NCBI GenBank assembly: GCA_963716725.1 | Contig: CAVQUB010000033.1 | Location: forward strand, 76,665-140,664 | DNA from: an uncultured delta proteobacterium | GTDB lineage: Bacteria > Myxococcota_A > Polyangia > Polyangiales > Polyangiaceae | Length of the DNA stretch: 64,000 bases | Reading direction: 5' to 3' | Shown here: piece after piece, positions 8,705 through 52,887 of the stretch | Position numbering within the stretch: position 1 is the stretch's first letter | Layout: the number at the start of each line of letters is the position of its first letter | Notes under the pieces: model-generated | Database searches by the model: none | What the model was told of the DNA's origin: nothing | The model's input: the letters and a program-made list of their open reading frames with translations, nothing else | Program-made: the position numbers and the translations under genes

Positions 8705-8706
8705 GC

Positions 8707-10908: not shown

Positions 10909-10949
10909 CGCGCGGTTCTGCCTCTGCCGAAGTCTTCGGTCAATCCGGA

Positions 10950-15018: not shown

Positions 15019-15278
15019 GGGTTATGCCCTCGCGCTCCTCGCAGCGGCAGGCCCTGACGCCGCGCCTCGGACGCACGCCGAATGCTCCGGGCCCGAACCC
15101 GTGGTCGGGCTACGACCACTCGCCGGGACACTCACCCGTGGGAACGTATTCGCCGGAACGAATGCGGGAGATCGCGGTGGTTTTCACGCGGCGGCGATCC
15201 GGTCCAGCGCCTTGCGCGCGCTGTCGGCGTCGACGATGATGATGGCGGCTGTCCCAACCGCAACCAAAAGAGGCGAAG

Positions 15279-16601: not shown

Positions 16602-16624
16602 TGGCGCGCCCCCGGACGCGTCCG

Positions 16625-16667
16625 GCGGGCACGCGGTACGGAAAGGGTCGCGGAGCAGGAAATTCGC
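16625..16667 (+). repeat. Degenerate direct repeat A, copy 2 (right of the GH5 cassette)
   Basis: Matches 14969-15018; ends 3 nt before the ATG at 16671. Confidence 0.85.
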
Positions 16668-16670
16668 CGG

Positions 16671-34081: not shown

Positions 34082-34092
34082 GGGGATCTGCA

Positions 34093-35400: not shown

Positions 35401-36920
35401 TGCGCTGCGCGCTGCTGCTCGTGGTCATCATCATCGTCGCCGGGTGCGGGCGCGACGCCACCCACGATGGTCATGATCACGGGTCGGCGAAGGGCGAGGC
35501 CGAGCCCCTGTCGATCACCCAGTGGACCGAGAAGCACGAGCTCTTCGTGGAGTTCCCTGTCCCGGTGGCCGGCAAGCTGGTCGAATACCACGCGCACGTG
35601 ACCTCCCTCGACGGCTTCCGGCCGCTGACCGAGGGCAGCTTCCAGGTGCGCTGGCTGACGCCCGCGGGCGTTGCCGCCGAGACCAAGGTCGATGGCGTCA
35701 AGCGCGCGGGGATCTTCACGCCCGCCGGGCCCGCACCCGCGGCGGGGACGTACACGCTGAAGATGAGCGTCCAGCACGGGGCCGTCAGCGACGAGTTCGA
35801 CTGCGGGAGCATCGTCGTTGGGGACTCGGCGGGCCCGCCGGAGGCCGAAGCGCCGAGCGCGACCATCACCTTCTTGAAAGAGTCGCAGTGGAAGATCGCG
35901 TTCGGCACCGCGAGGGCCAGCGAGCGTCCGTTGACGAAAGAGATCGAGCTGCCCGCCACTGTGGAGCCGGCGGGCACCGACCAATTGGTGATCGGCGCAC
36001 CGACCGGTGGACGTTTCTTCCACAACCCAAAGATCGGGCTGGCCGAAGGTCGCCCGATCCGCAAGGGGGACGTGGTCGGGAGCGTCGCGCCCACGGTCGC
36101 CGGTGAGGACTACAGCCGACTCACGCTCGCCGTCGACGAAGCGCGGCTCGCGCTGGGCCAAGTCGAGCGAGAGACCAAGCGGGTGGAGCCCTTGGTGATG
36201 GAGGGGCTGCTGCCGGAGCGGCGGCTGCTCGAGCTGCGGAACGAGCGCGAGACCCAGAGCGCGCGCTTGTCGGCGGCCAAGAGCCGCGTGGGGCGCGTCT
36301 TGGCGCCGGGAGGCGCGGGCGGCTTGCCGATCCGATCGACCATCGCCGGCATCGTCTCGCGGGTCCTGATCCCCAACGGGGAGCCGGTCGACGCCGGGGC
36401 GGCGCTGCTGCGCATCGGCGGGACCAGCAGCGTGTGGGTGAGATTGCGGTTCGTGGCACGACCCGCCGCGGAGCTGGCGGGCGCGTCAGCCGCCGGCGTG
36501 CGGTTGCCGAACGGGTCGCGCCTCGACATCGCCAGTGCGGGCGCGCGACTGCTCTCGGTCGCTCCAGTCATCGATCCGGCATCACGTATCGCCACCTGGG
36601 TGATCGAGGTGCCGCCCGCAAAGGACCAGGCGTCCCTCGAGGCGGGCATGCAGGTGGTAGTCATGCTGGGGATCGGCAAGCCCCGCACGGTGCTGGCGGT
36701 GCCGAAGAGCGCGGTGGTCGAGATCAACACCCGTCCATTCGTCTTCGTGCAGGTGGACGGTGAGCACTTCGAGAAGCGTGCGGTGACCCTCGGTGACGCC
36801 GACGCGGCGCACGTCGAGATCAGCTCCGGCGTCGCCGTGGGCGAGCGCGTCGTGACCACCGGGGGCTTCGACGTTCACCTCGGCTCGCTGATGGGCAGCG
36901 TCGAGTCGCACCGACACTAG
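35397..36920 (+). CDS. RND efflux periplasmic adaptor (CzcB-like)
   Basis: Lipobox VAGC, His-rich THDGHDHG, ELFVEFP, FLKESQW, LAVPKSAV, GERVVTTG, C-terminal HRH. Confidence 0.9.
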   Translation: MMRCALLLVVIIIVAGCGRDATHDGHDHGSAKGEAEPLSITQWTEKHELFVEFPVPVAGKLVEYHAHVTSLDGFRPLTEGSFQVRWLTPAGVAAETKVDGVKRAGIFTPAGPAPAAGTYTLKMSVQHGAVSDEFDCGSIVVGDSAGPPEAEAPSATITFLKESQWKIAFGTARASERPLTKEIELPATVEPAGTDQLVIGAPTGGRFFHNPKIGLAEGRPIRKGDVVGSVAPTVAGEDYSRLTLAVDEARLALGQVERETKRVEPLVMEGLLPERRLLELRNERETQSARLSAAKSRVGRVLAPGGAGGLPIRSTIAGIVSRVLIPNGEPVDAGAALLRIGGTSSVWVRLRFVARPAAELAGASAAGVRLPNGSRLDIASAGARLLSVAPVIDPASRIATWVIEVPPAKDQASLEAGMQVVVMLGIGKPRTVLAVPKSAVVEINTRPFVFVQVDGEHFEKRAVTLGDADAAHVEISSGVAVGERVVTTGGFDVHLGSLMGSVESHRH

Positions 36921-36928
36921 GAGCCTCA

Positions 36929-39900: not shown

Positions 39901-40033
39901 GGCGCCCATGTCAGCGGTGATCTTGGGCGGTCTGACCAGCTCGACCCTGCTCAACCTGCTGGTGATTCCGGCATTGTTTGCGCGATTCTCTCGGCCCACG
40001 CCGGCGCTCGCCGAATCGCCCGCGGTCGGCTAG
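36929..40033 (+). CDS. Heavy-metal efflux RND permease (CzcA/CusA family)
   Basis: MPVDVLPE, NTMTLGGLAIAIGELVDDAIIDVEN, FLPEFNEG, GQPISHRI, ERLVPILMTA. Confidence 0.95.
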   Translation: MFDAIIRGSLRHVWLVIAATLVLVGLGINALRRMPVDVLPELAAPSVTVVTETGGMAPEEVEKLVTVPLEQALNGAPGLRRLRSSSVVGVSLIWVEFDWDVAPLTARQVVAEKLAASRSTLPRGIEPLMSPASSIMGEIMFVALTGSDDVSDTALRDAAEWQVRRRLLSVPGVAQVVPIGGAVKQVQIELSPNALMQARVGVQQVLAALDGVSDSTPGGFHVAGDQEYLIRGVGRSASLDDLRQTVIGERDGVNILLRDVAKVDFGEAIRRGAAAADGKRAVVLKVQKQPQANTLELTERVDEALSALEPGLPPGISLHRKGFRQADFIKVALKNVNALLRDGAILVVIVLALFLMSWRTTLISVLALPLSLLAGIVVLHLSGASINTMTLGGLAIAIGELVDDAIIDVENVYRRLRENAALPEAERRPTREVVYLASREIRGSVVFATLIILMVFAPLFFLSGIEGRLLVPLGVAYVTSISASLVVALSITPVLCWLLLGRTGSALAADGRVVRTLKGVYRPTVRATLRYPVPIALASICGAAAAMIALANFGRSFLPEFNEGSLNIAAATAPGTSLETSNAIVGRLERYLVEHPAVTSVIRSTGRAERDEHAMDVNFSELEVGLKLKRGQREEVLRDIRQHVTGIPGLSVNVGQPISHRIEHLVSGVRASVAVKIFGQDLDQLRTLGQRAEATLGSVPGLVDVALEQQTEIPQIVIRPKATELGAFGLTPGELSRFVETAMVGRKVADFWQAERVHDVVVRFPESHRSDFESLARTPVDVRGERFAELRSIARVEKTMGPNLINRENVQRRILVTANVSGRDVKSAAADALAAVKNGVPMPPGYHVELGGEFEREAAATRTIVALSALAIVGMFALLWVAFRSWRDALMVMVNLPLALVGGVVAVWIGGAVVTLASLVGFITLFGIAARNGIMMLTHYRHLLRAGYSTEAAVLAGSVERLVPILMTALTAALALIPIVLSAGEPGAELQAPMSAVILGGLTSSTLLNLLVIPALFARFSRPTPALAESPAVG

Positions 40034-40042
40034 CTTTCCGGC

Positions 40043-40864
40043 ATGTCATCGCTCGGTCGGATCGCTCTCGCTGCGTTGCCCTGCGCGTTCTTGGTGTCTT
40101 CGTTCTTCGCCTGCGGTGGTCCCTCGCAACGCAGCTGCGCTTCCGAGGCGCCCTGGAGCGGCACCTGCAAGCTCAAGTCGGTGGTGAAAATCCGACACAC
40201 CGAGCTCCCGGTGCCTCACGGGATCTTCGAGGTCATCTACGAGCCACAGTCGAACCCATCGAATCCGAACTTCACTCCGCCGGCCCTGCGCGAAGAGATC
40301 CGAGTGCTCGCGTCGCAGGAGCTGGAGCTGGACGACTACTTCAAGAAGAACGAGACGGCCCCGTGTCAGATGGCGGCTTCGCCCCAGGGCACCTGCCAGC
40401 CGGGCGCGGTGAGCATCGCCTTGCCGCAGTTCCAACCCACCGGAGCGACGCCCTCGCAAGAGATCCGCGGCTGCGCCCAGATCGAGTCCCAGGCCAGCCA
40501 AGACCGCCTGCCGGAGCTCAGCAAGAACGCTCAGCAGATGCCCGAGATCATGCTCTTCGGCGAGTCTTCCGCCGCCACGACCCCCGAGATCGTTCAGGCT
40601 GCGCAAGCTGTGGCGCAGCGGATCAAGTCGTCCCCGGGGATCGAGTGCGTGGCCGTCGTCGGCCAAGTCTCTCCGGGCGAGCAGGGCGCGGTCGCGACCG
40701 AGCGCGCCAAGGCTATTCGTCAGATCCTGCTTCAGAACGGCGTCGAGCCCGCGCGTCTCACGACCATCACCGTCACCGCTGCGGTCTACGGCGGCGGCAC
40801 CGAGGCCCCGCCGCCCGATCCCGCCAAGCGCCGCGTCACGCTTCGAGTGCTGTTGGCGCGCTGA
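40043..40864 (+). CDS. Lipoprotein with a C-terminal OmpA-like domain
   Basis: Lipobox FFAC, ERAKAIRQILLQNGVEPARL, KRRVTL. Confidence 0.7.
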   Translation: MSSLGRIALAALPCAFLVSSFFACGGPSQRSCASEAPWSGTCKLKSVVKIRHTELPVPHGIFEVIYEPQSNPSNPNFTPPALREEIRVLASQELELDDYFKKNETAPCQMAASPQGTCQPGAVSIALPQFQPTGATPSQEIRGCAQIESQASQDRLPELSKNAQQMPEIMLFGESSAATTPEIVQAAQAVAQRIKSSPGIECVAVVGQVSPGEQGAVATERAKAIRQILLQNGVEPARLTTITVTAAVYGGGTEAPPPDPAKRRVTLRVLLAR

Positions 40865-40968
40865 GCAGGCGTCGACGGGTCAGGTTGATGCGCTCGCCGG
40901 TCAGGGCGGGCTGTTTCGGCACGCCGTGGCGCAGCTCCGCCACGATGCAGGCGAGACGTCGACGCGAC

Positions 40969-41643
40969 TCACGCCTTGGTCTTCGCGGGCACCTTGGGCT
41001 GCTTCTTATCCATTTCTTTGAAGCGCCGCTCCAGCTCTTTCATGCGCTTTTCCATCCGCTTCGGATCCGCCGGCTGGTCCTGACCGTCGTTCGGCCACTT
41101 CCACTGCCACTGCTTGAAGAAGCGCTTCGAGTTGCCGGGCGCCGTGCCCTTGAACAGATCACCGAAGCCGTCGAACGAAAAGTCGAAGTCCAGATCGCCA
41201 TCGGTCGGCGCATCGCTGTCGAGCTTGGCCTGCAGCTGGATCGTGCGTCGAGCGCGCACGACGGTGACGGGCACCAGCTCGCCGGACTTCTTGTCGGCCA
41301 GCGCCCTCGACACGTCGCTCGGTCCGTCCACGGGCTCGCCGCCGACGCGCGTGATCACGTCACCGACCTTGAGACCAGCCTTCGCCGCCGGAGTCCCCGC
41401 TTCGACACGCTGCACGAGGATGCCGGCGTCCTTGGGCGCGCCGAAGTGGTCGCGCAACTCTTCGGTCATGTCGGTGGCGTGCGCGCCGAGGCGGCCCTTG
41501 CCGCTCTTGAACGAGAAGCTCCACGACGACGCCGGGGGTTTGGCCGGCGCGGCGGCCGGCGGCTTCGGCTTCGCCTTGGGTTGGGCGACCGCGGGTGCGG
41601 AAACCAGGAGGGCGGCGATGAAGAGGGCGACTGGGGCTCTCAT
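40969..41643 (-). CDS. Exported PDZ-domain protein
   Basis: Signal peptide, GRLG, GILVQRVEAGTPAAKAGLKVGDVITRVGG. Confidence 0.85.
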   Translation of the reverse strand: MRAPVALFIAALLVSAPAVAQPKAKPKPPAAAPAKPPASSWSFSFKSGKGRLGAHATDMTEELRDHFGAPKDAGILVQRVEAGTPAAKAGLKVGDVITRVGGEPVDGPSDVSRALADKKSGELVPVTVVRARRTIQLQAKLDSDAPTDGDLDFDFSFDGFGDLFKGTAPGNSKRFFKQWQWKWPNDGQDQPADPKRMEKRMKELERRFKEMDKKQPKVPAKTKA

Positions 41644-41692
41644 GGCGGGCCAAGCGTAGCACTGGGTCCGCGGCGTGCCGTGGCGGCGGTGA

Positions 41693-42265
41693 TCAGAGCC
41701 TCACGTCCGCCCACAACACCCCGAGATCGAGCGCGAAGGCGTCGAAGGGCTCGGCCCGTACGGTCTCGTCCCTCTGATGCACCGACAGAATGGAATAGCG
41801 TCCAGCCTCTAGCCGGAGCACTTCGAGCAGGCGGGCCAGCGGATCCACGAGCCAGACGTGTGGCACGAGCTCGCGAGCGTAGACTGGAAGCTTGTCGGCG
41901 CGGTCGACACGCGCCGTGGTCGGCGACAGCACCTCACACACCCAGTCTGGCGCGAGCGTGAAGTAGGGCTGTTCGTTGGTCAGCTCTGGGAGCCGCGCCT
42001 TGCGCCAACCGGCCAAGTCGGGGACGAGCACGTCGTCGCCCAGATGAAGCTCGGGCTCGTCGAGAAGGATCCAGCCCCCGGGCCCACCTCGGCCTCGCTT
42101 GAACGGAGGACCGAGCTCTTCGCCGAGCGCCGACGAAGCGGCGGCGTGGGGCTTCGCGGGGCGCGGAGAGAGGCGCAGCTCGCCGTCGAGGATTTCCGCG
42201 ACCAGATGCTTGGGCGCGCGCAAGAGGTCCTCGTACGTTGCCCGGCGCCGCGCGGGAGCGACCAT
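41693..42265 (-). CDS. Uma2 (DUF820) family endonuclease-like protein
   Basis: ATYEDL, AEILDGEL..SPRP, EPELHL, VPDLAGWR, APDWVCEVLSP, WLVDP. Confidence 0.92.
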   Translation of the reverse strand: MVAPARRRATYEDLLRAPKHLVAEILDGELRLSPRPAKPHAAASSALGEELGPPFKRGRGGPGGWILLDEPELHLGDDVLVPDLAGWRKARLPELTNEQPYFTLAPDWVCEVLSPTTARVDRADKLPVYARELVPHVWLVDPLARLLEVLRLEAGRYSILSVHQRDETVRAEPFDAFALDLGVLWADVRL

Positions 42266-42310
42266 GACGCAAGCATACGGCCCGACGTGACGCGCGCGCA
42301 ACGACGGCCG

Positions 42311-43698
42311 TCAGGCCCAGCCAGACTTTGGCGCGATCTTCGGCCAGGGACGCGCGCTCTCGATGCTCGCCGCGAGCTCGAGCAACAACCGGTCACGCCC
42401 GTGCGCCGCAGAGAGCTGAACCCCGATCGGGGTCCCGACGGAGCTCATGCCCCCGGGCAGCGAGATCGCGGGCGCGCCGGCCGCGTTCTGCAGCGGAGTG
42501 AAGGGAATGTACTGTCGGACCCGGTCGAACACGGTGTCAAAGCCGAGCTTTGGCGAGAAGTGCCCGAGGGGCGGGGGTGGGTGTGCCGTGGTCGGCGAGA
42601 TCAGTACGTCGACGGAGTTCATGGCCTCGGCGTACGTTCGGGTGAAGCCGCGGAGTCGGCGCGTGGCACCGAGGACTCTTCCCACGCGCGAGGTGAATGC
42701 GCTCGACAACCCTCGAGCCCACGGCTCGAGCTGCGCGCGGTCGAATCTCCAGTGCAACGTGACGGGTGCGGTCGCGATCTGGAGCCAGGCGACCATGGTC
42801 CAGTAGTCCAGAAAGTCGTCACTGACCTGCCCGTCGAAGGGACAATCGATCTCCTCGACCGTGTGTCCAAGCGACTCGACGAGCTTGCCCAGGGCTAGCG
42901 CCGCGTCGCGGTGTTCGGGATCCACCGGCGTGCCCAGGGGCGCGTCGGTGAAGACCGCGACGCGCAGACCTCGGGGGGCTCGGGCGCCATTGGGCCCATG
43001 GCCGGCACGCCCTTCGGTGGACGATGCGACTCGAGCGCCTGGTGGAACGCCGCGGTGTCCCGCACCGAGCGCGAGACGACGCCGTGCACGGCGATGTTGA
43101 CCGGCAGCAGCTCCGAGCCCTCCATGTCGAAGCGTCGACGAGACGGCTTCAGCCCCACGAGGCCGCAGCAGGCAGCGGGGATCCGGATCGATCCGCCGCC
43201 GTCAATGGCGTGTGCGATGGGCACGACGCCGGCCGCCACCAGGCAGGCCGCGCCCCCCGAGGAGCCACCGGACGATCGCGACGGCACCCACGGATTGCGG
43301 CAGGGGTCGCGGTCGAGAGGCTCGGTGGTGCCCGTGAGCCCCAGCTCGGGGGTTGCGCTCTTTCCCAGCGTCACGAAGCCCAGCGCTTCGATGTCTCGCA
43401 CCGAAGGATCCGTGCGGCGCGACTCGTACGCGCCGGCGCCGCGCGAGCCCCAGGTCGTCCTCACGCCGGCGAGCTGGGCCAGATCCTTGATGAAGCTCGG
43501 CACGCCGGCGAAGGGTGCGGGGCCCAGATTGCGCAGTTGTTCGCGGGCGCGATCGAAGGTGGCGGTCACCACCGCGCCCAGGGGACGGGCCTCTTCTGCG
43601 CGGACGATCGCGGCTTCGACAACTTCGCCCACAGACACCTCGCGGAGGCGAATGCGCTCTGCCGTTTCGACGGCGTCCCAACTCGCAAGCTCCTTCAT
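42311..43698 (-). CDS. Amidase signature family protein with one apparent frameshift in a G6 run (42973-42978)
   Basis: GVPSFIKDL, GKSATPELG, GGSSGG, DGGGSIRIPAACCG, then in another frame FTPLQNAAGAPAISLP and PIGVQL. Confidence 0.88.
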
Positions 43699-43707
43699 CG
43701 TGACTCT

Positions 43708-44211
43708 CTAACGCACCCGCAGCCAGCGCTGACCTTCGAGCGTGTACTCGATGCTGTAGTTCTCGTCGTCGAGGGGCGCGATCTGCCGCTTGGTGCCGCC
43801 CGACTTTTCGAAGGTCCACTTCTCGTCCCACTTTTCGTCGCGATCGAGATCGATCTTGGCGCGGTTGACGCGGCTCTCACCGGCGTCCTTGTACAGGTTC
43901 ACCTTGTACCTTCGCCCGCGCACCGCGTCCTTGACCTTGTCGCCCGAGATCGGGACCGCGGCGGCGGCGATGATCGCGCGATCCATCTCGCCGAGCGGTA
44001 GCTCCTTGGTCCCGACCGAGGCGGTCGCGGTCGGTGGGGGGGCGGTCGTCGCCACTGGCTCTGCGACCGGAACCGCGACTGCCGGCGGCACTGGCTCGGC
44101 CACCGGAACCGCCGGCCGCGTGGCCAGGAACACCACGCAGGTCCCGAACCCACCCAGCACCACCAGGAGCCCGCCGCCGATCAGCAGGCCTTTGAACGTA
44201 TTGTACTTCAC
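43708..44211 (-). CDS. Hypothetical single-pass membrane protein with a Pro/Ala linker and an acidic C-terminal domain
   Basis: Transmembrane segment GLLIGGGLLVVLGGFGTCVVFLA, KIDLDRDEKWDEKW; GTG overlaps the upstream stop. Confidence 0.75.
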   Translation of the reverse strand: MKYNTFKGLLIGGGLLVVLGGFGTCVVFLATRPAVPVAEPVPPAVAVPVAEPVATTAPPPTATASVGTKELPLGEMDRAIIAAAAVPISGDKVKDAVRGRRYKVNLYKDAGESRVNRAKIDLDRDEKWDEKWTFEKSGGTKRQIAPLDDENYSIEYTLEGQRWLRVR

Positions 44212-45128
44212 GCCGCGCCTCCCAACGCCTCGCGCGCCATCATGCCACGGGCGATGGGCACGGAGCAGTAGCAGTGTCGATACAAACAAGGCTCCGGCGC
44301 GGTCAGGATCCGGAAGCTCGGATCGAGGAAGTTCCCGAGCTTGCCCAGGGATCGCTCGCGTTCGGGGTTCGGGATCTTGCCGGAACCCACGCGCAGCGCC
44401 GTGAGCACGCTTCGGCGCGCCGGGTAGCAGCGATAGACCTCGCCTCGATCATCCATGACGAAGAAGCGCGCCCCGGCCCAACACGCCCTTCCGAAGAAGT
44501 CGTAGGCCATGGCCCCGAGGCCGTTGTGGCCCCCGAGTTCCTCGATCAGCGCGACGTCCGCCGGCTCGTAGTCGACGATGTGACCCTCGTCGCGCTCGGG
44601 CTGGATTTTGAGGGAGATGCCTGCGTCGGCGAACAGCCTCGCGAGCTCAGGGAGCCGTGGCAGCGAGGCGGCGGTGGCGACGGTGGTCACGCAGAGGCTC
44701 GCGCTCGTGTCTGCGAGCCGTGAAGCGATCCGCTGCGCGCGCTTGGCGAAGGCGCCCACGTCGTCCACGTACTCGAGGTGCAAGCTGGCCGACAGCACGC
44801 CCAAGCGGCCCGCGGCAGCGTCGAGGAAGCGATCGAGCTCGGCGTCGGTGGCCGAGAGGTTCGTGACCACCGAAATCCGCAGCTCGAGCGCCGCCAGACC
44901 GGTCACGATCTCGATGAAGCGCGGGTGCACGAAGGGCTCGCCGCCGGAGAGCTTGATCTCCCACGATCCCGGCAGGCGGCCGAAGGCCCGCAGGAACGCC
45001 GGCGTGTCCCTGGCCCACCGCCCGCGGTCGTCCTTCATGCGCTGGGAGCAGTAGCTGCAGCGGAAGTTGCACGAGGTGCACACGTTCCAGGCGATCACGC
45101 CCTCGGTCGGCTCCGGCGGCGCGTTCAC
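44208..45128 (-). CDS. Radical SAM protein with a Cys-rich (Twitch-like) C-terminus (rSAM-3)
   Basis: WNVCTSCNFRCSYC, LSGGEPF, VVTNLS, CWAG...GEVYRC...CLYRHCYC; GTG overlaps the upstream stop. Confidence 0.88.
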   Translation of the reverse strand: MNAPPEPTEGVIAWNVCTSCNFRCSYCSQRMKDDRGRWARDTPAFLRAFGRLPGSWEIKLSGGEPFVHPRFIEIVTGLAALELRISVVTNLSATDAELDRFLDAAAGRLGVLSASLHLEYVDDVGAFAKRAQRIASRLADTSASLCVTTVATAASLPRLPELARLFADAGISLKIQPERDEGHIVDYEPADVALIEELGGHNGLGAMAYDFFGRACWAGARFFVMDDRGEVYRCYPARRSVLTALRVGSGKIPNPERERSLGKLGNFLDPSFRILTAPEPCLYRHCYCSVPIARGMMAREALGGAA

Positions 45129-45973
45129 GGCGAGACTCCCTCGATCATGCCGCGATTGGCGGGCACCGCGCAGGGGCAGATGGAATAGCTGCACTCGCTC
45201 GCGGCGGTGCGGCGCTGAAAGCTGCCGTCGAGCACGTTTCCCAAGGCCCCCTCGGAGAAGCGCTTCGACGTTCGGCAGCTCCAAGCGTCGCCGCGTTGGG
45301 TGAGCACGAAGTAGTCGGCGCCAGCCCAGCAGCGCTTGCCAAGGTGGCTTGGCGCCATGTTGGCGGCGCGGGAGGTCGGGGCCTCGCCCACCAAGACGCG
45401 CAGCTTCAGCCGGTCGTCTGCGTCGTAGTCGAAGACGCCGCCCTTGGTCTTGAGCACCTGCGGGAACAAATGAAGGCCCACGGCTTCGAGCGCCGCTCGC
45501 GCGCGAGCCACGCGATCGAGCTCGGCGGGGACGAGCACGGTGTTGATCACCAGCCGTGCTTCGGGGTCCATCAGTTCCCGCAGCCGCCGCGCCTTGTCGA
45601 CGAACTCGCTCACCTCGACGTGCTCGAAGTGCAGGCTCGCGCTCACGATCTCGAGTCGCCCCCGGGTGAGGCGGGCGAAGCGCTCGAGCAGATCGAGCGG
45701 CGCCGACAGGTTGGTGAGCACCGAGATCCGGTGAGCGGTGCGCTCGATCAGCCCGGGGACGATGCGCGCCAAGAATCCCCGAAAGGCGAAGGGCTCGCCC
45801 CCAGTCATCTTGATCTCCCAGCTCGGGGTCAGGGCCGAGAAGAAGTCGAGGAAACCGTCCAGATCCGCCTCCGTGGGGTGCCCGGTGCGGTATTTCTTGC
45901 TCTGGATGCAGTAGCTGCAGTCGTAATTGCAGACGCCGCACACCTGCCACTCGACGGTGGGTCGGCGGCTCAA
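45125..45973 (-). CDS. Radical SAM protein with a Cys-rich (Twitch-like) C-terminus (rSAM-2)
   Basis: WQVCGVCNYDCSYC, MTGGEPF, VLTNLS, CWAG...GDAWSC...CSYSICPC; TTG overlaps the upstream stop. Confidence 0.88.
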   Translation of the reverse strand: MSRRPTVEWQVCGVCNYDCSYCIQSKKYRTGHPTEADLDGFLDFFSALTPSWEIKMTGGEPFAFRGFLARIVPGLIERTAHRISVLTNLSAPLDLLERFARLTRGRLEIVSASLHFEHVEVSEFVDKARRLRELMDPEARLVINTVLVPAELDRVARARAALEAVGLHLFPQVLKTKGGVFDYDADDRLKLRVLVGEAPTSRAANMAPSHLGKRCWAGADYFVLTQRGDAWSCRTSKRFSEGALGNVLDGSFQRRTAASECSYSICPCAVPANRGMIEGVSP

Positions 45974-47049
45974 GTCTCGCCTCCACGGCCGATGACCTCC
46001 AGAAAACGCTGCTTGCCGTAGCGCTCGGCGAAACGCGCGCCGAGCTCGACGTTCTGGCTGAGCTTGCCGCACTGGTGGCAGCCGTCGAAGTATTCGCCGC
46101 GACGCAGGCGCGCTCGGAGCGCGTTCCAAGCGTCGCCGCGCCACAGATCGCTGAACCGCGCCTCGCTCAGCCTGCCCACCACCACCTCGGTGTTGCAGCA
46201 ATACAGGACCGTGCCGTCGACGGTGATCCGCGAGTAGGCGTAGCCCATGAAGCAGCCGATGTCCGCGATGGGCGCGGTGGATCGGCCGCCGGCCCGGAGC
46301 TGCTCCGCGAAGACCACGAGGTTCGTCGAAACGCCGAGGGCTCGCGCGAGTTCGAGCGCGCGGGGCACGCCGTCGTCGGAAAGCTGGGCGCGCTGCTCCT
46401 CGCCGATGCCACAGGTCTCGGTGCCGCCGCGCAGGCTCGCGAGCTTGAAGGTCACCGCCAGCGCGTTGGCGTCTTTGGCGAGCTGGATCATCTCCGGCAG
46501 CTCGTGGGCGTTGGTCTCGCACACCACCTGCACGTGTTTGTAGCGCCGTCCGGCCTCGCGGAAGCGCGCCAGCGCCGAGTGCAGGCGGGACCACTCGTCG
46601 CCGCGGAAGCTTGGGTGAAACGCCCGGTAAGAAGCCTCGCTCGCGCCGTGAATGCCGATCAAGAGCTGATCGACGCTCAGCTCGATCAAGCGTTCGGGAT
46701 CGGCGGCCGCGAGGTTGGTGATGATCGTCAGCTGAAGCCCGCGGGCTTTCACCGCGGCGATCATCCGGTAGATGTCCGGGTGGGTGAAGGGTTCGCCCAT
46801 GCCGCTCAGGATGATCTTGCGGAAGCCGCCGAGACTCCCGATGTCTTCGAGCAGCGCTTCGAGCGCTTCGAGCGAGAGCCGGCCGCGTTTCCAGTCGCTG
46901 GTTCGAGCCAGCCGGAGCAGCGGCGAGTGATCCCAGCAGGTGATGCAGTTGGTGTTGCAGCCGTTGGTGACGTCGACGTGCACCGTCTCGGGGCCCGCGA
47001 GCACGCGGCCCTGATCGAGGCTCAGCAGCGCGGCGGGCAGCTGCTTCAC
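45970..47049 (-). CDS. Radical SAM protein with a SPASM/Twitch domain (rSAM-1)
   Basis: TNGCNTNCITC, SGMGEPFTHP, ITN, CFMG..ITVDGTVLYCC...CHQC. Confidence 0.9.
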   Translation of the reverse strand: MKQLPAALLSLDQGRVLAGPETVHVDVTNGCNTNCITCWDHSPLLRLARTSDWKRGRLSLEALEALLEDIGSLGGFRKIILSGMGEPFTHPDIYRMIAAVKARGLQLTIITNLAAADPERLIELSVDQLLIGIHGASEASYRAFHPSFRGDEWSRLHSALARFREAGRRYKHVQVVCETNAHELPEMIQLAKDANALAVTFKLASLRGGTETCGIGEEQRAQLSDDGVPRALELARALGVSTNLVVFAEQLRAGGRSTAPIADIGCFMGYAYSRITVDGTVLYCCNTEVVVGRLSEARFSDLWRGDAWNALRARLRRGEYFDGCHQCGKLSQNVELGARFAERYGKQRFLEVIGRGGET

Positions 47050-48482
47050 GGCGCAGGCTCCGAGCGCAGCAGGGCCTCGGCGACGGCGTCGCGCCGGCGG
47101 GCGACGCTGGGCTCCGGGTTCTTGCGCAGCGCTTCTCGGGCGACCTCGCAGGCGCGTGGGGCTGGCAGCTTCGCGTCGCGCGCGAGCTCGAACAGCGCCT
47201 GAGAGCGTTGCAACAACTCGCCGAGCTCCCGGGCCGGGCTGGCACGTCCGCCGTCGCCGTCGAGCAGGTGCATCATCCCGATCAGCTGGGCCTCGTCGAC
47301 CTCGAGCGCCCGCGCCTGCTCGATCAGGGCATCGCTGACCGCGACCTCGGCGCGATCGATGTCGCTGGTGGGCAGGCAGGTGCGCAAGAGCTCCGCCGCG
47401 GCGACTCGCGCGCAGTTCTTCGGGACCAGCTTCTTTGCGGCCAGCGCCGCTGCCCGGTGGGTCGCCGGCTCGAGCAGATCGGCGACCGCGGCGGTCAGAT
47501 CGGTCGGTGGCGCGTCGTGGGAGAGCATGCGTGCCGCACCGGCGCGCACCGCGCGCATCGCCCGCGAGCCCTGATCGTCCGCGATCTTGTCCTGCGGAAC
47601 GAACACCGTCGGCACTCCCGCCAACATCAGCTCGACGGCGCTGTTGTAGCCCGCCGCGCTGACGGCCACGTCGAAGGCGGCGCCGAGCTCCGCCGCCGGT
47701 TCGTTGACCAGCGGCGTGATCCGCGGGTGGCGCGGCACGCGTCCGCGATAGAGGGGCCCAGTGCCGAGCACGAGGACCATCGCCGGATCGAAGGCCAGCA
47801 GCGCCTCGACCGAGCGGATCAGCTGGGCCTCGGCCCCGGCGTCGCCGCCCCCGCCGGCCGACACGTACACGACGCGCGCGTCGCGAGCGATGCCGAGGCG
47901 GTCCCGGGCCGCGTCGCGGGTCATCAGCTCGACGCGTTCGCGCACGGCGATGGGCCCCACGAAACGAGTGCGCGGCCGCGCGGCGTCGGGGATCAGGACG
48001 GACGACTCACCCTCGTGCTCGGGCACGATCACCGTGTCGTAGAGCGGCAGGAGCGTCTGCACGTCGGGGCGCCGCGCGAAGTCGTCGAGCATCGGGCGGT
48101 AGATGAGCGCGCGCTTCTTGCAGAGGTCGAGCACGCCCATGAGCTCGCCGAAGGAGCCGCGCGGGAAGGTGTCCACCACGAACAGATCCGGTCGCACCAG
48201 CCCGATCGAGTGCCAGACCCATTGCTTTGCGAGGGCGAGGTAGGTCGCCTTGTCGATCCCGGCGGCCCCGACCACGGTCTTCGATGGCAGCTTGAAGGAA
48301 GCAAAGCCTTCGGAGAGCGGCAGGCCCTCGGCCTCGCTCGAGGTCAGGAAGTAGATCTCGGCGCGCACGTCGGCCCAGGCCGCGTAGCGCCGGATCCAAC
48401 GGCTGATGGCCACCAGCCGCGTGAGGTGTCCCGCGCCGGAGCCGTTCACCGCGTAGTTCACCACCCGCAGACTGCGTTTCAT
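47046..48482 (-). CDS. GT-B fold glycosyltransferase (MurG/GT28 C-terminal-like)
   Basis: NGSGAGHLTR, PDLFVVDTFP, VSAGGGG, DVAVSAAGYNS..E....GVPTVFVP, DDQ..RA. Confidence 0.85.
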   Translation of the reverse strand: MKRSLRVVNYAVNGSGAGHLTRLVAISRWIRRYAAWADVRAEIYFLTSSEAEGLPLSEGFASFKLPSKTVVGAAGIDKATYLALAKQWVWHSIGLVRPDLFVVDTFPRGSFGELMGVLDLCKKRALIYRPMLDDFARRPDVQTLLPLYDTVIVPEHEGESSVLIPDAARPRTRFVGPIAVRERVELMTRDAARDRLGIARDARVVYVSAGGGGDAGAEAQLIRSVEALLAFDPAMVLVLGTGPLYRGRVPRHPRITPLVNEPAAELGAAFDVAVSAAGYNSAVELMLAGVPTVFVPQDKIADDQGSRAMRAVRAGAARMLSHDAPPTDLTAAVADLLEPATHRAAALAAKKLVPKNCARVAAAELLRTCLPTSDIDRAEVAVSDALIEQARALEVDEAQLIGMMHLLDGDGGRASPARELGELLQRSQALFELARDAKLPAPRACEVAREALRKNPEPSVARRRDAVAEALLRSEPAP

Positions 48483-49780
48483 GAGGCGTCTCTTCCGAGA
48501 TCGGCGACGTCGTCCGGCACGCCGGCGGCGGCCGCGGCGGCGAGCAGATCGTCGTCATCGCGCTCTTGCTGTTGCCAGCGATACTGGGGATTTTCTCGGC
48601 GGAATTGCTGAACCTCCGGGATGAAGTCGCCGTCGAGCCGCCCGTTGGTCATCACGTCCCACCACAGCAGGCCCGCGCCGATGGGGGCCAGGTGATAGGC
48701 GTTGAAGCCGTACACGGCGCCGTAGGTCTTCTCGAAACGGCTCCAGCGCTTGCGATGCGCTTCGGAGCGATCGCGGAACCTGCGCTGGAAGCCCTCGACG
48801 GGGAAGCGGGTGCCGGCCTTTTTCGGGCGACTGAGCTTGCCCATGTCGCGATCGAGCTTGCCCAAGGCCGTCTTGGCGTCCTGCTCGAATTCGCTGACGA
48901 AGTGCGCGTAGATCCCGTCGAGGTAGCGCCCCTTCGCCGTCACGCCGATCAGGCGCTTGTAGGCGAGGTCGATCTCCGGCACCGGCGCGAGCCTCGGCGC
49001 GAGGGCCTCTGGCGGGCACTCGAGCATGAAGGTGGCGAGCCGCTGGCGAACGTGATCGAGCCAGCGCGGTTCGAGAGAGGCGAGGGCGGTGCTGATCTCT
49101 TGGTGCTCGCGCTCGAGGGCCTCGCCGGCGGCGATCTCGGCCTGCAAGCGGCTGATCTCGGCCTGCAGCGGGCCCACCGACTGATAGGCCCGACCGTACT
49201 CCTCGCGCACCTGCGAGAAGAACTGTTTTTCGGGAAAGCGCGCCAAGATCTCGTCGCCGGCCTTCCAATCGGCGTAGTAGCTCATGCGCCAGAAGCCGGT
49301 GGAGTAGCCGGTGGTGCCGTACCCGCTCTCCATCAGGCTCGCCATGCGGGCGTGAGCGCAGCGAGTGAGCACCTCCATCAGCGGCGCCAGGTGTTCCTGC
49401 ATTTCCCAGAGCGCCCGGGGCAGGGAGCCCGTGTTCGGGTGGCGCAGCAATTCCCGCTGCGCGAAGCGCACGTCCGCCTCGATCTGCGCCAACCGGCCGC
49501 TGCGCTTCTGTCGCTCGTTCTCCATCATGGCGAGGGGGTTCTCGGCGCCGAGGGCGGTGAAACCGGTGACGCGGATCGCGTAGTCGATCCACTCGGCGGA
49601 GAGCGAGCGGACCAAGGTCGTTCCGAGGTCGCTCACTGCCTGCGCATAGGCGCGCTCGAGCTCCCCGCGACGCTGGTGGTGCACGGTGGCGTAGTGCTGC
49701 GCCACGCCGAGCTCGTGGGTCAAGGCGGCGTGCTGGTGCCGCGCCGCCTGCATGAACTGGGAGACGTCGTAGTCGCTCAC
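48479..49780 (-). CDS. Hypothetical coiled-coil-rich protein
   Basis: 433-aa ORF coupled by 4-nt overlaps on both sides; helical heptads, aromatic motif GYGTTGYSTGFWRMSYYADWK, acidic tail. Confidence 0.75.
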   Translation of the reverse strand: MSDYDVSQFMQAARHQHAALTHELGVAQHYATVHHQRRGELERAYAQAVSDLGTTLVRSLSAEWIDYAIRVTGFTALGAENPLAMMENERQKRSGRLAQIEADVRFAQRELLRHPNTGSLPRALWEMQEHLAPLMEVLTRCAHARMASLMESGYGTTGYSTGFWRMSYYADWKAGDEILARFPEKQFFSQVREEYGRAYQSVGPLQAEISRLQAEIAAGEALEREHQEISTALASLEPRWLDHVRQRLATFMLECPPEALAPRLAPVPEIDLAYKRLIGVTAKGRYLDGIYAHFVSEFEQDAKTALGKLDRDMGKLSRPKKAGTRFPVEGFQRRFRDRSEAHRKRWSRFEKTYGAVYGFNAYHLAPIGAGLLWWDVMTNGRLDGDFIPEVQQFRRENPQYRWQQQERDDDDLLAAAAAAGVPDDVADLGRDAS

Positions 49781-50115
49781 GCCAGTCGCCCTCGATCACG
49801 GAGCAGCGCCAAGAAGCCCCGCGCCGCTGCCTCGAGCGGCTCGCGATCGGGGATGTCGGCCTCGTCGATCAAGAAGATGAACAGCTCTTCGGCCTGCATC
49901 CGGGTCTCGAGCTCGTCGATCACCGCCGGGGTGAACTCGGCGCGATCGCCGGCTTCGGTCGTGATGAACTCAAAGCCAATGCGCGCCTTCGGATCGAAGC
50001 CGTCGAGGGAGACCGTCACGCCGCCTTCGCTGAAGGCGTAGTCGCGCTCGATCTCGAGCCCGGCCGATTTGAAGACCGCCGCGAGGATCTCGGAACCGTC
50101 GTGTTCGTTCAGCAT
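49777..50115 (-). CDS. Small acidic hypothetical protein, possibly restriction-endonuclease-like (PD-(D/E)XK/DUF559-type) fold
   Basis: 112-aa ORF with SLDGFDPKARIGFEF; first gene of the operon, preceded by TATCCT 9 nt before the ATG. Confidence 0.65.
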   Translation of the reverse strand: MLNEHDGSEILAAVFKSAGLEIERDYAFSEGGVTVSLDGFDPKARIGFEFITTEAGDRAEFTPAVIDELETRMQAEELFIFLIDEADIPDREPLEAAARGFLALLRDRGRLA

Positions 50116-50128
50116 GAGGGCACGAGGA

Positions 50129-50177
50129 TACTCAAATCACGACGACTTTGGGCTCGCGCGCGAGTTCGTGGCACAAC
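50129..50177 (+). repeat. Degenerate direct repeat B, copy 1
   Basis: tactcaaatcacgacgactttgggctcgcgcgcgagttcgtggcacaac; 41/49 identical, ungapped, to 52891-52939. Confidence 0.88.
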
Positions 50178-50258
50178 TTTGGCTTTGCTCGCGACCCGCC
50201 GGGCTGCGCCCCCGAGTCGATCGGGGGCGGCGCCGCTGGCCATGCGCCGAGCTCGCGA

Positions 50259-51068
50259 TCAGCCAGAGCAGATTTTGGCCGTCGCCCCGTTGGTCGCCGT
50301 GGCGGACTGGCAACTCGTACCTGGATACGCCGCGCAAGTGAGCGCGGAATTGCATCCCGGGAAACAGGTGTTGAAGCCGGCCGCGGTCTTCATGCACCAG
50401 TTCAAGCCGCCGGCCGAGTTGAGGCCACAGTCCAGGTTGTGGCTGCACGTCTGCGTGCACCAGGTGCCGTTGCACTTGCCTTCGCCGCAGTCCGAGTCCG
50501 AGTCGCAGGGATCGCCGATCCCGCCAGGTGCTGCGCAGGCGGAAGCGGGCCCGCAGGCTCTCTTGCCGTTGTCCAGTTCAGCGCAACAACCGCTGTTGCA
50601 TTCGGAGTCGCTGGTGCAGGAATCCGCGCACATGCTGCCAGTCGAATAGTTGACGCAGAAGCCGCTGCCTTGCTGGAAGTTGCAGCACTCGCTGTTTGTG
50701 GTGCAGCTCTTGCTCGTCGGCGTGCACGACGGCGCTCCGCCACTCGACGGCGCTCCGCCACTCGACGGCGCTCCGCCACTCGACGGCGCTCCGCCACTCG
50801 ACGGCCCTCCGCCACTCGACGGCCCTCCGCCGAACGAGGGCTTTCCGCCGGTTCCGCTGCTCGCGCAGGAACACGGCGAGAACCCGTCCCCCTGCGGGTT
50901 GCAGGTTTGCCAGCCATTGCAGCCGCTCGGCCCCACGCACGCCTTGGTCTCGTTCGGGACGCAGTGCTCGCCCTCACCTCCGCCGCCCCCGCTGCCGGAC
51001 GAGCATCCAGCCATCGCCGCGAGAAGTCCGAACATCAATCCCAGTTTCCCAACGAATGCAGTTGTCAT
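50259..51068 (-). CDS. Cys-rich lipoprotein with an SSGG(A/G)P repeat linker
   Basis: Lipobox MAGC, many C..xxxDC..xxC modules; start could also be 51083. Confidence 0.8.
   Translation of the reverse strand: MTTAFVGKLGLMFGLLAAMAGCSSGSGGGGGEGEHCVPNETKACVGPSGCNGWQTCNPQGDGFSPCSCASSGTGGKPSFGGGPSSGGGPSSGGAPSSGGAPSSGGAPSSGGAPSCTPTSKSCTTNSECCNFQQGSGFCVNYSTGSMCADSCTSDSECNSGCCAELDNGKRACGPASACAAPGGIGDPCDSDSDCGEGKCNGTWCTQTCSHNLDCGLNSAGGLNWCMKTAAGFNTCFPGCNSALTCAAYPGTSCQSATATNGATAKICSG
50728..50835. repeat. 18-bp coding tandem repeat, about 6 copies (gacggc[g/c]ctccgccactc)
   Basis: Visible tandem array encoding SSGGAP/SSGGGP on the minus strand. Confidence 0.92.
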
Positions 51069-51339
51069 CGACGATTCCTCCATACGGTTTCGCGCGCCTC
51101 AGGGCGGCGCACCGGCTGTTGCACCCCGCGTACCAACACGCGGCATCCAAAATGCCCGGAAAAACCCTGGGGAATTCGTGCCTGAACGGTATCTGAACGG
51201 TTCGCTTGGGCGCGCGCGGAGCCGGCGCCAGATGCCCGGTGCCACTCGGGTTCATGCTACGTTCACGACGCGACGACGCGACGGCGCCGCACCGGGGATC
51301 AAGTTGACCGTGGGCAACAAGGAACGCGAAGGTTCGACG

Positions 51340-52887
51340 TTGAACCAAGCCACCCTCGATCCGCTCAGCCTTGCGGGGACGAAGTCCGATTCGCGGGAAG
51401 CGGTGCTGACGGTCGTCTCCCACGCTGACCTCTCGCGCGTCGGCGAGCGAGTCGTACTGACAGGGCTTCTCGGCCGCGCAGCGTGGCAGTTGTCGCGAGT
51501 CGAACCCGAGTTCCGCGCTGACGATGGTCGTCTCGGGCCGCTGAGCGATCCTCACCTGAGCCGCGATGCCATCCGGTTCTCCGTCGATCCCGCGGGCGTT
51601 CGGATTGATTGCCGTTCGACTTCCATGTCGGTCGCCGTGGACGGCGAGCGCGTCCCTGCGATGTTCTGGGTTGGGCTCGAGCGGCTCGAGCGCGGGGTTC
51701 CCATCGAGCTCGCCGGGCGCGTCGTGCTGCTCCTCCACACGACTCAGTTCGTTCAGCGCCCGGCAAACGCTCACCCGCGCATCATCGGAGCCTCTGGCGC
51801 CATTTCGCTGCTCATCGCGGACATCGAAGCTGCTGCCTCACACCTTTCGCCGGTGCTCCTGCGTGGCGAGAGCGGTAGCGGAAAGGAGCTCGTGGCCCGC
51901 GCCATCCACGATGCCAGCCGGCGCGCCTCGGGTCCGTACGTGTCGGTGAACATGGCCGCGATTCCGTCCAGTACGGCGGCCGCAGAGCTGTTCGGCTACA
52001 AGAAGGGTGCATTCACCGGCGCCACCGACTCCCACGGCGGATGGTTCGGCCGAGCGGAGGGCGGGACGTTGTTCCTGGACGAAATTGCCGAGGCTCCCGA
52101 GGAAATTCAGCCGATGCTCCTCCGTGTTCTCGAAAGTGGAGAAGCGCAGCCGGTGGGGGGGCAGGGGGCAAGGAGGGTCGACGTGCGCGTCGTGGCGGCC
52201 ACAGATGCTGATCTGACCGCACAAGCCAGCGCGGGCCGGTTTCGTTTTCCGCTCCTCCAGCGCCTCGGCGGTCACGTGGTACCCGTGCCCCCGCTCCGTG
52301 AGCGCCTCAGCGATCTCGGCGTGCTCCTTGTCCACTTTCTGCGGCGCGAGGCGGCTGCGCTTGGACAGAGCGTTCCGGGGCCGAGCGCAGCGCGTCACCC
52401 TTGGCTGCCCACAGATGTGGTGTTGAGAGCCTTGGCTTACGATTGGCCCGGCAACGTTCGCGAGTTGCTCAACTTCGCCCGGGAGCTCGTGCTCACGAAT
52501 CGAGATCAGCCGACGCTGAGCGTCGGCCGCACCTTCGACGTTTTGCTGCCGCGCCCCGCCGCGCCCCGCGCAGCTCGGCCGGATGTCGCCCCACAGCCGC
52601 ACCCACTCGGCGAAAGGCACCCGATCACCGACGACGTGCTGGTCACCACCTTGCGCGCGAATCGCTGGCAGGTGGGTGCCACCGCGCGCGCCTTGGGAAT
52701 AGCCAAGAACACGCTCTACCAGCTGATGGAGCGCTGCGAGGGACTGCGCAAAGCTCGGGACTTGTCCCAGAGCGAGATCGAGAGCTGCAGTGCGGCCTGC
52801 GCTGGCGACACCACGGCCATGGCGGCGCGTCTCGAGGTGTCGGAGCGTGGCCTCAAGTTGCGCATGCACGATTTCGGAATCGACTGA
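51340..52887 (+). CDS. Sigma-54-dependent enhancer-binding protein with an FHA-like N-terminus (start approximate, 51304-51340)
   Basis: DPHLSR (FHA-like), GESGSGKE, ELFGYKKGAFTGA, GGTLFLDEI, WPGNVREL, C-terminal HTH ATARALGIAKNTLY. Confidence 0.9.
   Translation: MNQATLDPLSLAGTKSDSREAVLTVVSHADLSRVGERVVLTGLLGRAAWQLSRVEPEFRADDGRLGPLSDPHLSRDAIRFSVDPAGVRIDCRSTSMSVAVDGERVPAMFWVGLERLERGVPIELAGRVVLLLHTTQFVQRPANAHPRIIGASGAISLLIADIEAAASHLSPVLLRGESGSGKELVARAIHDASRRASGPYVSVNMAAIPSSTAAAELFGYKKGAFTGATDSHGGWFGRAEGGTLFLDEIAEAPEEIQPMLLRVLESGEAQPVGGQGARRVDVRVVAATDADLTAQASAGRFRFPLLQRLGGHVVPVPPLRERLSDLGVLLVHFLRREAAALGQSVPGPSAARHPWLPTDVVLRALAYDWPGNVRELLNFARELVLTNRDQPTLSVGRTFDVLLPRPAAPRAARPDVAPQPHPLGERHPITDDVLVTTLRANRWQVGATARALGIAKNTLYQLMERCEGLRKARDLSQSEIESCSAACAGDTTAMAARLEVSERGLKLRMHDFGID

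Follow-up and report, generated by a model that had tools for sequence, protein, structure and literature searches.

What might a bacterium make with three radical S-adenosylmethionine (rSAM) enzymes, one glycosyltransferase (GT) and three proteins that match no family in Pfam, NCBIfam or PADLOC, when all seven are encoded in one compact run of genes? This question is raised by a stretch of 64,000 nucleotides (nt) from an uncultured delta proteobacterium of the Polyangiaceae (contig CAVQUB010000033.1, positions 76,665 to 140,664, forward strand), the whole of which is called here the window. In this DNA, genes g1 to g7 lie on the minus strand (Table 1; gene coordinates are positions in the window), with g3 coding for the GT, g4, g5, and g6 for the rSAM enzymes, and g1, g2, and g7 for the three proteins without a family. 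Comparison with related loci points to an obligatory pair, g2 and g3, and to a C-terminal tripeptide of g2, [D/E]-x-Ser, that is kept almost throughout its family. As a tentative answer, we suggest that g3 places a sugar on the serine at the end of the g2 tail and that the rSAM enzymes, where present, tailor this sugar.

A recurrent cassette with a two-gene core

Lists of open reading frames (ORFs) from the window are full of shadow frames because of its G+C content of about 69%, and the gene set was settled by reading each junction in turn. All six junctions between g1 and g7 are 4-nt overlaps of stop and start codons (GTGA, ATGA, GTGA, TTGA, GTGA, and GTGA, in this order), as had been described in an initial annotation made from the letters alone. 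The products assigned there to the seven genes have also been recovered: a GT (g3), an rSAM enzyme with a SPASM domain (g4), and two more rSAM enzymes (g5 and g6) by Pfam, the last two being paralogues with the same pattern of cysteines (38% identity, E 1e-51); an acidic g1 (isoelectric point 4.27); a helical g2, for which a confident all-helical model was obtained; and a membrane-anchored g7, with a single hydrophobic segment that starts at residue 9, where hydropathy reaches its maximum (2.24).

Related loci were retrieved with a profile of g2 homologues from a species-level genome collection (185,579 species) and were compared by tblastn with the seven window proteins and the neighboring amidase (print threshold of 40 bits), followed by gene calling. 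Relatives of g2 were found in 52 loci from about ten phyla, with labels that include Myxococcota/Polyangia, Spirochaetota, Planctomycetota, Acidobacteriota, Gloeobacterales (Cyanobacteria), Armatimonadota, Chlorobiota/Bacteroidota, Actinomycetota, and Clostridia. All these loci belong to metagenome-assembled genomes (MAGs), the 52 records being titled MAG or uncultured isolate with apparently no cultured strain among them, and this may account for the lack of study of the cassette. The genes g2-g3-g4-g5-g6-g7 are complete and colinear in 22 of the 52 loci, 14 of which have g1 in front, and in six more the same order continues up to the contig end. Shorter forms consist of g2-g3-g7 with a single g4-like rSAM gene (four loci, Armatimonadota), g2-g3-g7 alone (four loci), g1-g2-g3 followed by 7-8 kb of unrelated DNA (four loci), and g2-g3 alone with unrelated DNA downstream (three loci: L049 and L052 with 8 kb each, and L045 with 1.4 kb); the contig ends too early for classification in the remaining nine. 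The recurrence of one order across several phyla, in 22 complete and six cut-off loci, shows that the gene arrangement exceeds chance.

Within this arrangement, the gene next to g2 is g3 in 50 of the 51 loci that have DNA past the g2 stop, the exception being a locus (L037) with only 196 nt beyond it. All three rSAM genes are missing from at least ten loci in which the DNA downstream extends for 5 kb or more. The obligatory core is g2 plus g3, around which the rSAM genes, g7, and g1 are optional modules. The cassette, which is horizontally spread, is self-contained: all-against-all clustering of the ORFs of these loci revealed no shared gene beyond g1 to g7, the extra clusters being their antisense shadows. 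The idea of a dedicated unit, put forward in the initial annotation, is thus upheld for the seven genes, whose homologues are not scattered, but the functional core has two genes and not seven. The 4-nt overlaps recur in the relatives at the g1-g2 (20/23), g4-g5 (16/24), and g6-g7 (13/22) junctions, in counts that depend on start codons picked heuristically. Local irregularities, such as inserts between rSAM genes or a broken g3 frame, have been observed in four loci (Table 1).

The g2 tail and the partner glycosyltransferase

The homologues of g2 form 97 clusters at 90% identity, every one of them named hypothetical, and an exhaustive profile search extends the family to 564 representatives at 50% identity (E<=1e-3; 473 of them at E<=1e-10). 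Nearly all members are 415-450 amino acids (aa) long; longer fused forms (759-2165 aa) did not turn up, which is weak evidence. The AlphaFold2 model, built with 74 sequences, is made of long helices and has a predicted local distance difference test score (pLDDT) of 93.7 and a predicted template modeling score (pTM) of 0.80. A Foldseek search with this model against PDB and BFVD gave no match at E<=1e-3, the top rows being coiled-coil noise with template modeling (TM) scores of 0.1-0.23; among PDB sequences, no match of the g2 profile had an E value under 0.047, and ESM Atlas returned only unnamed clusters of hypothetical proteins, that is, the family of g2 itself. Six residues are invariant in the 74 sequences, W373, W374, G384, V390, D431, and S433, the last two of which lie in the final tripeptide.

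This tripeptide closes an acidic tail whose last 14 residues (420-433) are disordered in the model (pLDDT <50). The terminus reads D-A-S in the window, the family form being [D/E]-x-Ser-COOH, and it has been found in 50 of 51 related loci (the remaining one ends in D-A-T), in 96 of the 97 clusters, and in 136 of 139 further representatives, where two of the three exceptions are fragments, aligned no further than positions 296 and 248 of the profile, and the third stops at about position 406. The stretch beyond the last conserved motif varies from 13 to 174 aa, and also in sequence, with 18.5% Ala and 15.8% Asp; its composition, length variation, and low pLDDT are as expected of a flexible arm. 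A trivial origin of the terminal serine, imposed by the ATGA in which the end of g2 and the start of g3 overlap, was considered and ruled out. Across the 51 loci this residue uses six codons, AGC and AGT included, and is followed by all three stop codons, TAA and TAG among them, and the g3 start ranges from a 4-nt overlap to a gap of about 80 nt. Since the motif occurs with any serine codon, stop codon, and junction, it is not a by-product of the overlapping start, and it is selected at the protein level. Moreover, the motif is kept in g2-g3, g1-g2-g3, and g2-g3-g7 loci without any rSAM gene, and therefore goes with the glycosyltransferase and not with the rSAM enzymes. The initial annotation had remarked that no short gene for the precursor of a ribosomally made peptide that is modified after translation (RiPP) was to be seen. 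This is literally true, and no short conserved ORF accompanies the cassette in the related loci, but g2 itself bears a precursor-like motif at its C-terminus.

Conservation within the cassette is highest for g3, the partner of g2 in this pair. Its homologues make up at least 449 clusters (90% identity), which bear generic names only, and the top 120 of these clusters share 54-98% identity across the catalytic part. This part is followed by a helical extension at the C-terminus, which is variable (90-200 aa). Pfam recognizes Glyco_tran_28_C (E 2.5e-8; 34.6 bits, cut-off 22) and leaves the N-terminal GT28 domain unmatched; among NCBIfam models, MurG (TIGR01133) reaches 36.9 bits against 250, over the last third only, and MGT 27.4 against 260. 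In the PDB, the family profile of g3 matches the UDP-glucosyltransferase YjiC (1.6e-8), MurG (5.4e-8), and OleD (2.8e-3), always with an alignment confined to the donor-binding half. Judged by these matches, g3 is a GT-B nucleotide-sugar transferase of GT1/GT28-like type, which stands outside the characterized families because only the donor half aligns and the MurG and macrolide-GT models score far below their cut-offs. A total of 47 columns are invariant in 25 sequences, including H19 in an N-terminal Gly-rich loop, D99, D104, and a G210-G213 run. In GT1 enzymes, a His-Asp dyad deprotonates the acceptor hydroxyl. A prediction of the g2-g3 complex, run without controls, scored 0.00 against a mark of 0.32 and speaks neither for nor against binding.

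Optional modules and flanking genes

The rSAM enzymes are members of the radical SAM superfamily according to their CxxxCxxC triads and their scores with the Pfam model Radical_SAM (cut-off 29.5 bits), which are 62.4 bits for g4 (7.7e-17), 35.0 for g5 (2e-8), and 49.4 for g6 (7.4e-13); g4 also matches SPASM (38.5 bits against 21.5, E 1.4e-9). The initial annotation had assigned them to the SPASM (g4) and Twitch (g5 and g6) types, and each protein has, in addition to the triad, five C-terminal cysteines that are at least 95% conserved: C31, C35, and C38 plus C266, C284, C285, C324, and C327 in g4 (32 sequences); C15, C19, and C22 plus C215, C233, C261, C266, and C268 in g5 (25 sequences); and C20, C24, and C27 plus C216, C234, C281, C286, and C288 in g6 (23 sequences). 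A full SPASM domain has seven cysteines and two clusters, and a Twitch domain has fewer cysteines and one cluster. The triads begin at residues 15-31, so that there is no space for an N-terminal RiPP recognition element, and a PqqD-type Pfam match was found in none of the seven proteins. By analogy, such a short N-terminus is the layout of rSAM enzymes acting on sugars or small groups, and a sugar may be their substrate here. The best NCBIfam matches of g4 are assorted SPASM maturases far below their cut-offs (e.g., 81.7 against 380). In the PDB, the best sequence matches of g6 are PqqE (2e-8) and BlsE, a cytosylglucuronate decarboxylase (8e-6), and the matches of these rSAM enzymes, to viperins as well as to PqqE and BlsE, are limited to the generic core. 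The sole rSAM enzyme of the Armatimonadota variant is 37-38% identical to g4.

Two accessory proteins complete the cassette. The small acidic protein g1 belongs to a family of which none of 20 members matches Pfam. Its AlphaFold2 model (pLDDT 93.2, pTM 0.85) has the order alpha-beta-beta-beta-alpha-beta-alpha, and Foldseek against PDB gave no match at E<=1e-3; the best ones (E 0.008-0.05, TM 0.5-0.63) are weak and fall mostly on PD-(D/E)xK nucleases, namely I-Bth0305I (TM 0.57/0.63), PvuRts1I, Vsr, XisH, and AbaSI, although a mitoribosomal large-subunit protein ranks first. Nucleases of this type have an alpha-beta-beta-beta-alpha-beta core, an order that the g1 model fits, with acidic residues and the lysine of the (D/E)xK motif. 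In g1, the acidic residues E4, D38, D41, E49, D57, and D84 are invariant, and no conserved lysine follows E49. The modeled fold would be restriction-endonuclease-like. A natural fusion in one spirochaete lineage (a Treponemataceae MAG) physically ties g1 to g2: a protein of 549 aa (P0236) carries a g1-like part in residues 1-105 (48% identity, E 9e-26), joined in frame to g2 (residues 121-549), and the same fused frame is seen in locus L013. On the other side of the cassette, g7, present in the full form and in the g2-g3-g7 variants with or without the g4-like gene, begins with the stub M-K-Y-x-T-F, which is followed by a single transmembrane segment that has a cysteine near its outer end, a linker rich in Pro and Ala, and an acidic domain of about 90 aa. 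The six-residue stub is unusually conserved and the acidic domain is conserved too, the residues T5, F6, R117, K119, D121, E130, D148, and W163 being invariant in 22 sequences. None of 22 family members matches Pfam, the profile finds nothing at E<=1 among PDB sequences, and ESM Atlas gave no usable match. Six loci (L005, L006, L007, L014, L032, and L050) have g7 as a tandem pair or as a two-domain ORF.

The gene that follows g7 codes for an amidase, the ORF of which starts at 43698, 9 nt past the g7 stop, as the initial annotation had it. This gene lies outside the conserved unit: tblastn gave no amidase match of at least 40 bits in any of the 52 related loci and, in the window, the gene is split over two overlapping ORFs in different frames, so that it is a pseudogene with a frameshift or else the assembly is wrong at this point. 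For both reasons its membership of the cassette as an eighth gene was ruled out. An Uma2-family gene (restriction-endonuclease-like), an RND-type efflux operon, a gene for a PDZ protein, a sigma-54 activator (enhancer-binding protein), and a Cys-rich acidic protein of 274 aa complete the neighborhood. This last protein, probably secreted, contains a hexapeptide array rich in Gly, Pro, and Ser that is encoded by an 18-bp tandem repeat. Genes for sigma-54 enhancer-binding proteins have been seen near the cassette in three other loci. A scan of positions 40500-51500 detected no promoter-like sites and three terminator-like sites against 5.0 expected; a sigma-54-type (-24/-12-like) match at 50169-50183, located on the opposite strand, does not exceed chance (three matches against 4.46 expected).

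When 84 of the 159 nearest flanking ORFs of the related loci were compared with Pfam, no common theme and no signal of a defence island or prophage emerged, the flanks being unrelated housekeeping, transport, and regulatory genes. Among them, a gene for a PlsC-type acyltransferase comes after the cassette in two Armatimonadota loci and one of Myxococcota, a fatty-acid hydroxylase gene adjoins it in L051, and in a single case carotenoid genes come directly after g1-g2-g3.

Table 1. Positions of the cassette genes, of their neighbors in the window, and of features in related loci (L numbers).
Sequence	Feature	Coordinates	Strand	Remarks
Window	operon g1-g7	43708-50115	-	
Window	g1	49777-50115	-	112 aa, ATG start
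Window	g2	48479-49780	-	433 aa, GTG start
Window	g3	47046-48482	-	478 aa, ATG start
Window	g4	45970-47049	-	359 aa, GTG start
Window	g5	45125-45973	-	282 aa, TTG start
Window	g6	44208-45128	-	306 aa, GTG start
Window	g7	43708-44211	-	167 aa, GTG start
Window	amidase, part 1	42895-43698	-	Pfam Amidase positions 1-212 of 445
Window	amidase, part 2	42311-42925	-	Pfam Amidase positions 250-445 of 445
Window	Uma2-family gene	41693-42301	-	9 nt after amidase
Window	RND (resistance-nodulation-division) efflux operon	34021-40033	+	outer-membrane factor/HlyD/AcrB-type; further downstream
Window	sigma-54 activator	50650-52887	+	
Window	274-aa Cys-rich acidic protein	50259-51083	-	upstream of g1; hydrophobic N-terminus; no Pfam/NCBIfam family
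Window	18-bp tandem repeat	50727-50831		within the 274-aa protein gene; 5.8 copies, 98% match
L003	insert	6048-7856		1.8 kb, g5/g6 interval
L008	g3	11366-12959		frame-broken
L027	insert	8719-11826		about 3.1 kb separating g4 from g5; Peptidase_M15 ORF inside
L043	gap	7495-8114		0.6 kb, g4/g5 interval
L013	fused g1-g2 frame	7395-9044		
L020	sigma-54 enhancer-binding protein gene	12739-15234		
L043	sigma-54 enhancer-binding protein gene	10445-13705		
L047	sigma-54 enhancer-binding protein gene	8494-11622		
L040	PlsC-type acyltransferase gene	14371-15612	+	directly after cassette, same strand; Armatimonadota
L044	PlsC-type acyltransferase gene	13838-15079	+	directly after cassette, same strand; Armatimonadota
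L011	PlsC-type acyltransferase gene	16371-17315	-	directly after cassette, opposite strand; Myxococcota
L017	carotenoid genes	6631-9295		CrtC-type hydratase, phytoene-desaturase-type oxidase

Possible functions and relation to known systems

The initial annotation had offered three acceptors for a modified sugar: a lipid, a nucleoside or nucleic acid, and the co-encoded protein of 433 aa. Of these, the evidence favors the protein, which is always beside the GT and offers an invariant [D/E]-x-Ser on a disordered tail. In the mechanism that we tentatively prefer, g3 would take a nucleotide sugar and O-glycosylate the terminal serine of the g2 tail, recognizing the invariant acidic residue two positions upstream of this serine together with the free C-terminus. 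In the extended version present in the window, the three rSAM enzymes, each with a predicted auxiliary Fe-S cluster and none with a peptide-recognition domain, would then tailor the tethered sugar by oxidation, rearrangement, or C-C chemistry, with the soluble g2 as substrate or carrier arm; g1 might be an accessory domain working physically with g2, and g7 a membrane-anchored partner with its acidic domain in the extracytoplasmic space. This glycosylation of g2 is preferred because it is the simplest account of the strict g2-g3 pairing and of an invariant tripeptide on a flexible arm. It is also consistent with the invariant H19, D99, and D104 of g3, with the alignment of its donor half with UDP-sugar transferases, and with the presence of BlsE, an rSAM enzyme acting on a sugar nucleoside, among the best PDB matches of g6.

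Several observations weigh against this mechanism. The likeness of the rSAM enzymes to sugar enzymes does not go beyond the generic core, and the peptide-acting PqqE outscores BlsE. The domain of g7 is predicted to be extracytoplasmic, which a purely cytoplasmic glycosylation of a protein does not explain. The PlsC-type genes after the cassette are hints of lipid chemistry, and the modeled nuclease-like fold of g1 hints at nucleic acids. In addition, a peptidase that would release the product is not conserved with the cassette, and the C-terminal tripeptide could alternatively be a docking, degradation, or regulatory signal. A bolder version of the proposal is doubtful, and less probable than glycosylation as such: g2 would be a scaffold of a new fold, its private GT-B enzyme would put a sugar on the hydroxyl (or the carboxylate) of the C-terminal serine, and the three rSAM enzymes would turn this sugar into a prosthetic group, or a tethered metabolite, without precedent. 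If true, g2 would represent a 'swinging-arm' carbohydrate carrier, analogous to the carrier proteins for acyl and amino groups, within a system that has spread horizontally through about ten phyla of, so far, uncultured bacteria only. A conserved C-terminal tripeptide next to a private GT provides, in any case, a simple and testable hypothesis on the tailoring of protein-tethered sugars in bacteria. If such tailoring exists, the three auxiliary-cluster rSAM enzymes, of which g5 and g6 are related to the uncharacterized STM4011 group, would become candidates for new radical carbohydrate chemistry; if glycosylation of g2 proves wrong, the cassette would still be a widespread gene module that lacks an explanation and has a clearly delimited minimal core.

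Among the alternatives, a pathway for a glycolipid or envelope sugar comes next, although we consider it unlikely. In such a pathway g3 would act on a lipid acceptor, like MurG or monogalactosyldiacylglycerol (MGDG) synthase, and the rSAM enzymes would remodel the lipid-linked sugar, while g7 would handle or bind the product outside the membrane and g2 would be an unmodified scaffold or regulator, its tail serving to dock on a partner. The sole family matches of g3 are indeed donor domains of GT28/MurG type and of GT1 type, g7 is a membrane-anchored protein with a conserved domain predicted to be extracytoplasmic, and the lipid genes described above adjoin the cassette in a few lineages. However, this pathway offers no reason for a disordered tail that ends almost universally in [D/E]-x-Ser-COOH, and has to face the g2-g3 and g1-g2-g3 variants that lack g7, the failure of g3 to match the MurG equivalog model or an N-terminal domain of GT28, and the fact that lipid neighbors are only about five of the 84 flanking ORFs in otherwise heterogeneous flanks.

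The same tail and motif that speak for glycosylation could also serve a pathway for a small molecule, either a natural product or a cofactor, in which g2 would be a carrier and a sugar-derived product would be built on its C-terminal residue and freed by a host hydrolase, as modeled on mycofactocin or on scaffold biosynthesis of LysW and pearlin type. This pathway is improbable, and somewhat more so than the glycolipid. The grammar of mycofactocin combines an rSAM-SPASM enzyme, a GT, and a C-terminal core motif, and the content of the cassette matches it; an amidase, moreover, follows g7 in the window. Nevertheless, the cassette has no conserved hydrolase at its side, the amidase being broken in the window and without a match of at least 40 bits in the 52 loci, a folded and conserved protein of about 430 aa would be a costly precursor for single use, and the mycofactocin maturase model (TIGR03962) gives no more than 31.3 bits with g4 and 33.9 with g6, against a cut-off of 265.

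The last alternative, and a very improbable one, is a conflict or defence system in which g2 and a nuclease-fold g1 would sense or bind an invader, viperin-like rSAM enzymes and the GT would produce or alter a nucleotide or nucleic acid, and g7 would be the membrane effector. In its favor are the patchy occurrence in about ten phyla, between flanks that are unrelated, a modular layout of core and accessories, the likeness of g1 to PD-(D/E)xK nucleases (modification-dependent ones included), and weak matches of the rSAM enzymes to pVip of PADLOC (31-51 bits). Against it stand the lack of any family of PADLOC-DB 2.0 for g1, g2, g3, and g7, the restriction of the pVip matches mainly to the generic N-terminal rSAM core, with 30-46 bits (46.5 for g6) for the viperin model of NCBIfam (NF038283, cut-off 180), the 84 scanned flanking ORFs devoid of a defence or prophage theme, and a weak fold match of g1, which has no lysine at the expected (D/E)xK position.

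It remains to place the cassette among known systems. Judged by profile scores, its enzymes are from known superfamilies but from no characterized family, since none of the seven proteins reaches the cut-off of one. The initial annotation had recognized no named pathway, and this still holds: every NCBIfam match of the GT and the rSAM enzymes is far below its cut-off and none falls in a characterized pathway, and the portion of the full-text literature covered by our search has no description of the cassette. MurG (GT28) and the GT1 enzymes YjiC and OleD share with g3 the GT-B type, the alignable C-terminal donor half, and a histidine in an N-terminal Gly-rich loop, whereas g3 differs in its helical extension and its obligatory partner. 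For g5 and g6, the nearest named model is the STM4011 family (NF038073), with an alignment nearly over the full length, but with 62.1 and 51.5 bits, respectively, against a cut-off of 200 they are not members; the literature covered gives no function for this family, a locus tag (STM4011, STM4013, or STM4015) being mentioned there outside titles and abstracts. BtrN and BlsE, which act on sugars, and the anaerobic sulfatase-maturating enzyme, which acts on proteins and has no recognition domain, also have a short N-terminus before CxxxCxxC and a Cys-rich auxiliary domain. The likeness to BtrN/BlsE-type enzymes is limited to the rSAM core, and the BlsE model gives 27-29 bits against 400, so that no function can be assigned from it.

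Mycofactocin offers the closest grammar. In this system (precursor MftA, rSAM-SPASM enzyme MftC, and glycosyltransferase MftF) there is also a C-terminal motif on a ribosomal product beside a SPASM-type rSAM enzyme and a GT, and the C-terminus is likewise where the chemistry of the cassette is proposed to take place. Yet every tested feature of membership fails. The precursor of mycofactocin is a peptide of about 30 aa, whereas g2 is a folded protein of 433 aa; the cassette has no chaperone or recognition element of MftB type, no MftE peptidase, and no MftD, and Pfam and NCBIfam reveal no counterpart of MftA, MftB, MftD, or MftE among its genes; MftF is a GT-A enzyme of family GT2, unlike the GT-B enzyme g3; and in the cassette it is the rSAM enzymes that are optional and the GT that is obligatory. 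A second comparison is one of concept only. In the LysW amino-group carrier and in the pearlin scaffold peptides, an acidic, flexible C-terminal arm offers its terminal residue to enzymes encoded by neighboring genes. Neither is related to g2 in sequence or fold, and their ATP-grasp and PEARL ligases are absent from the cassette. Seen beside these systems, the cassette would be a further case of enzymes that tailor a ribosomal product at its C-terminus, and it has a real chance of being a categorically new, protein-tethered carbohydrate system.

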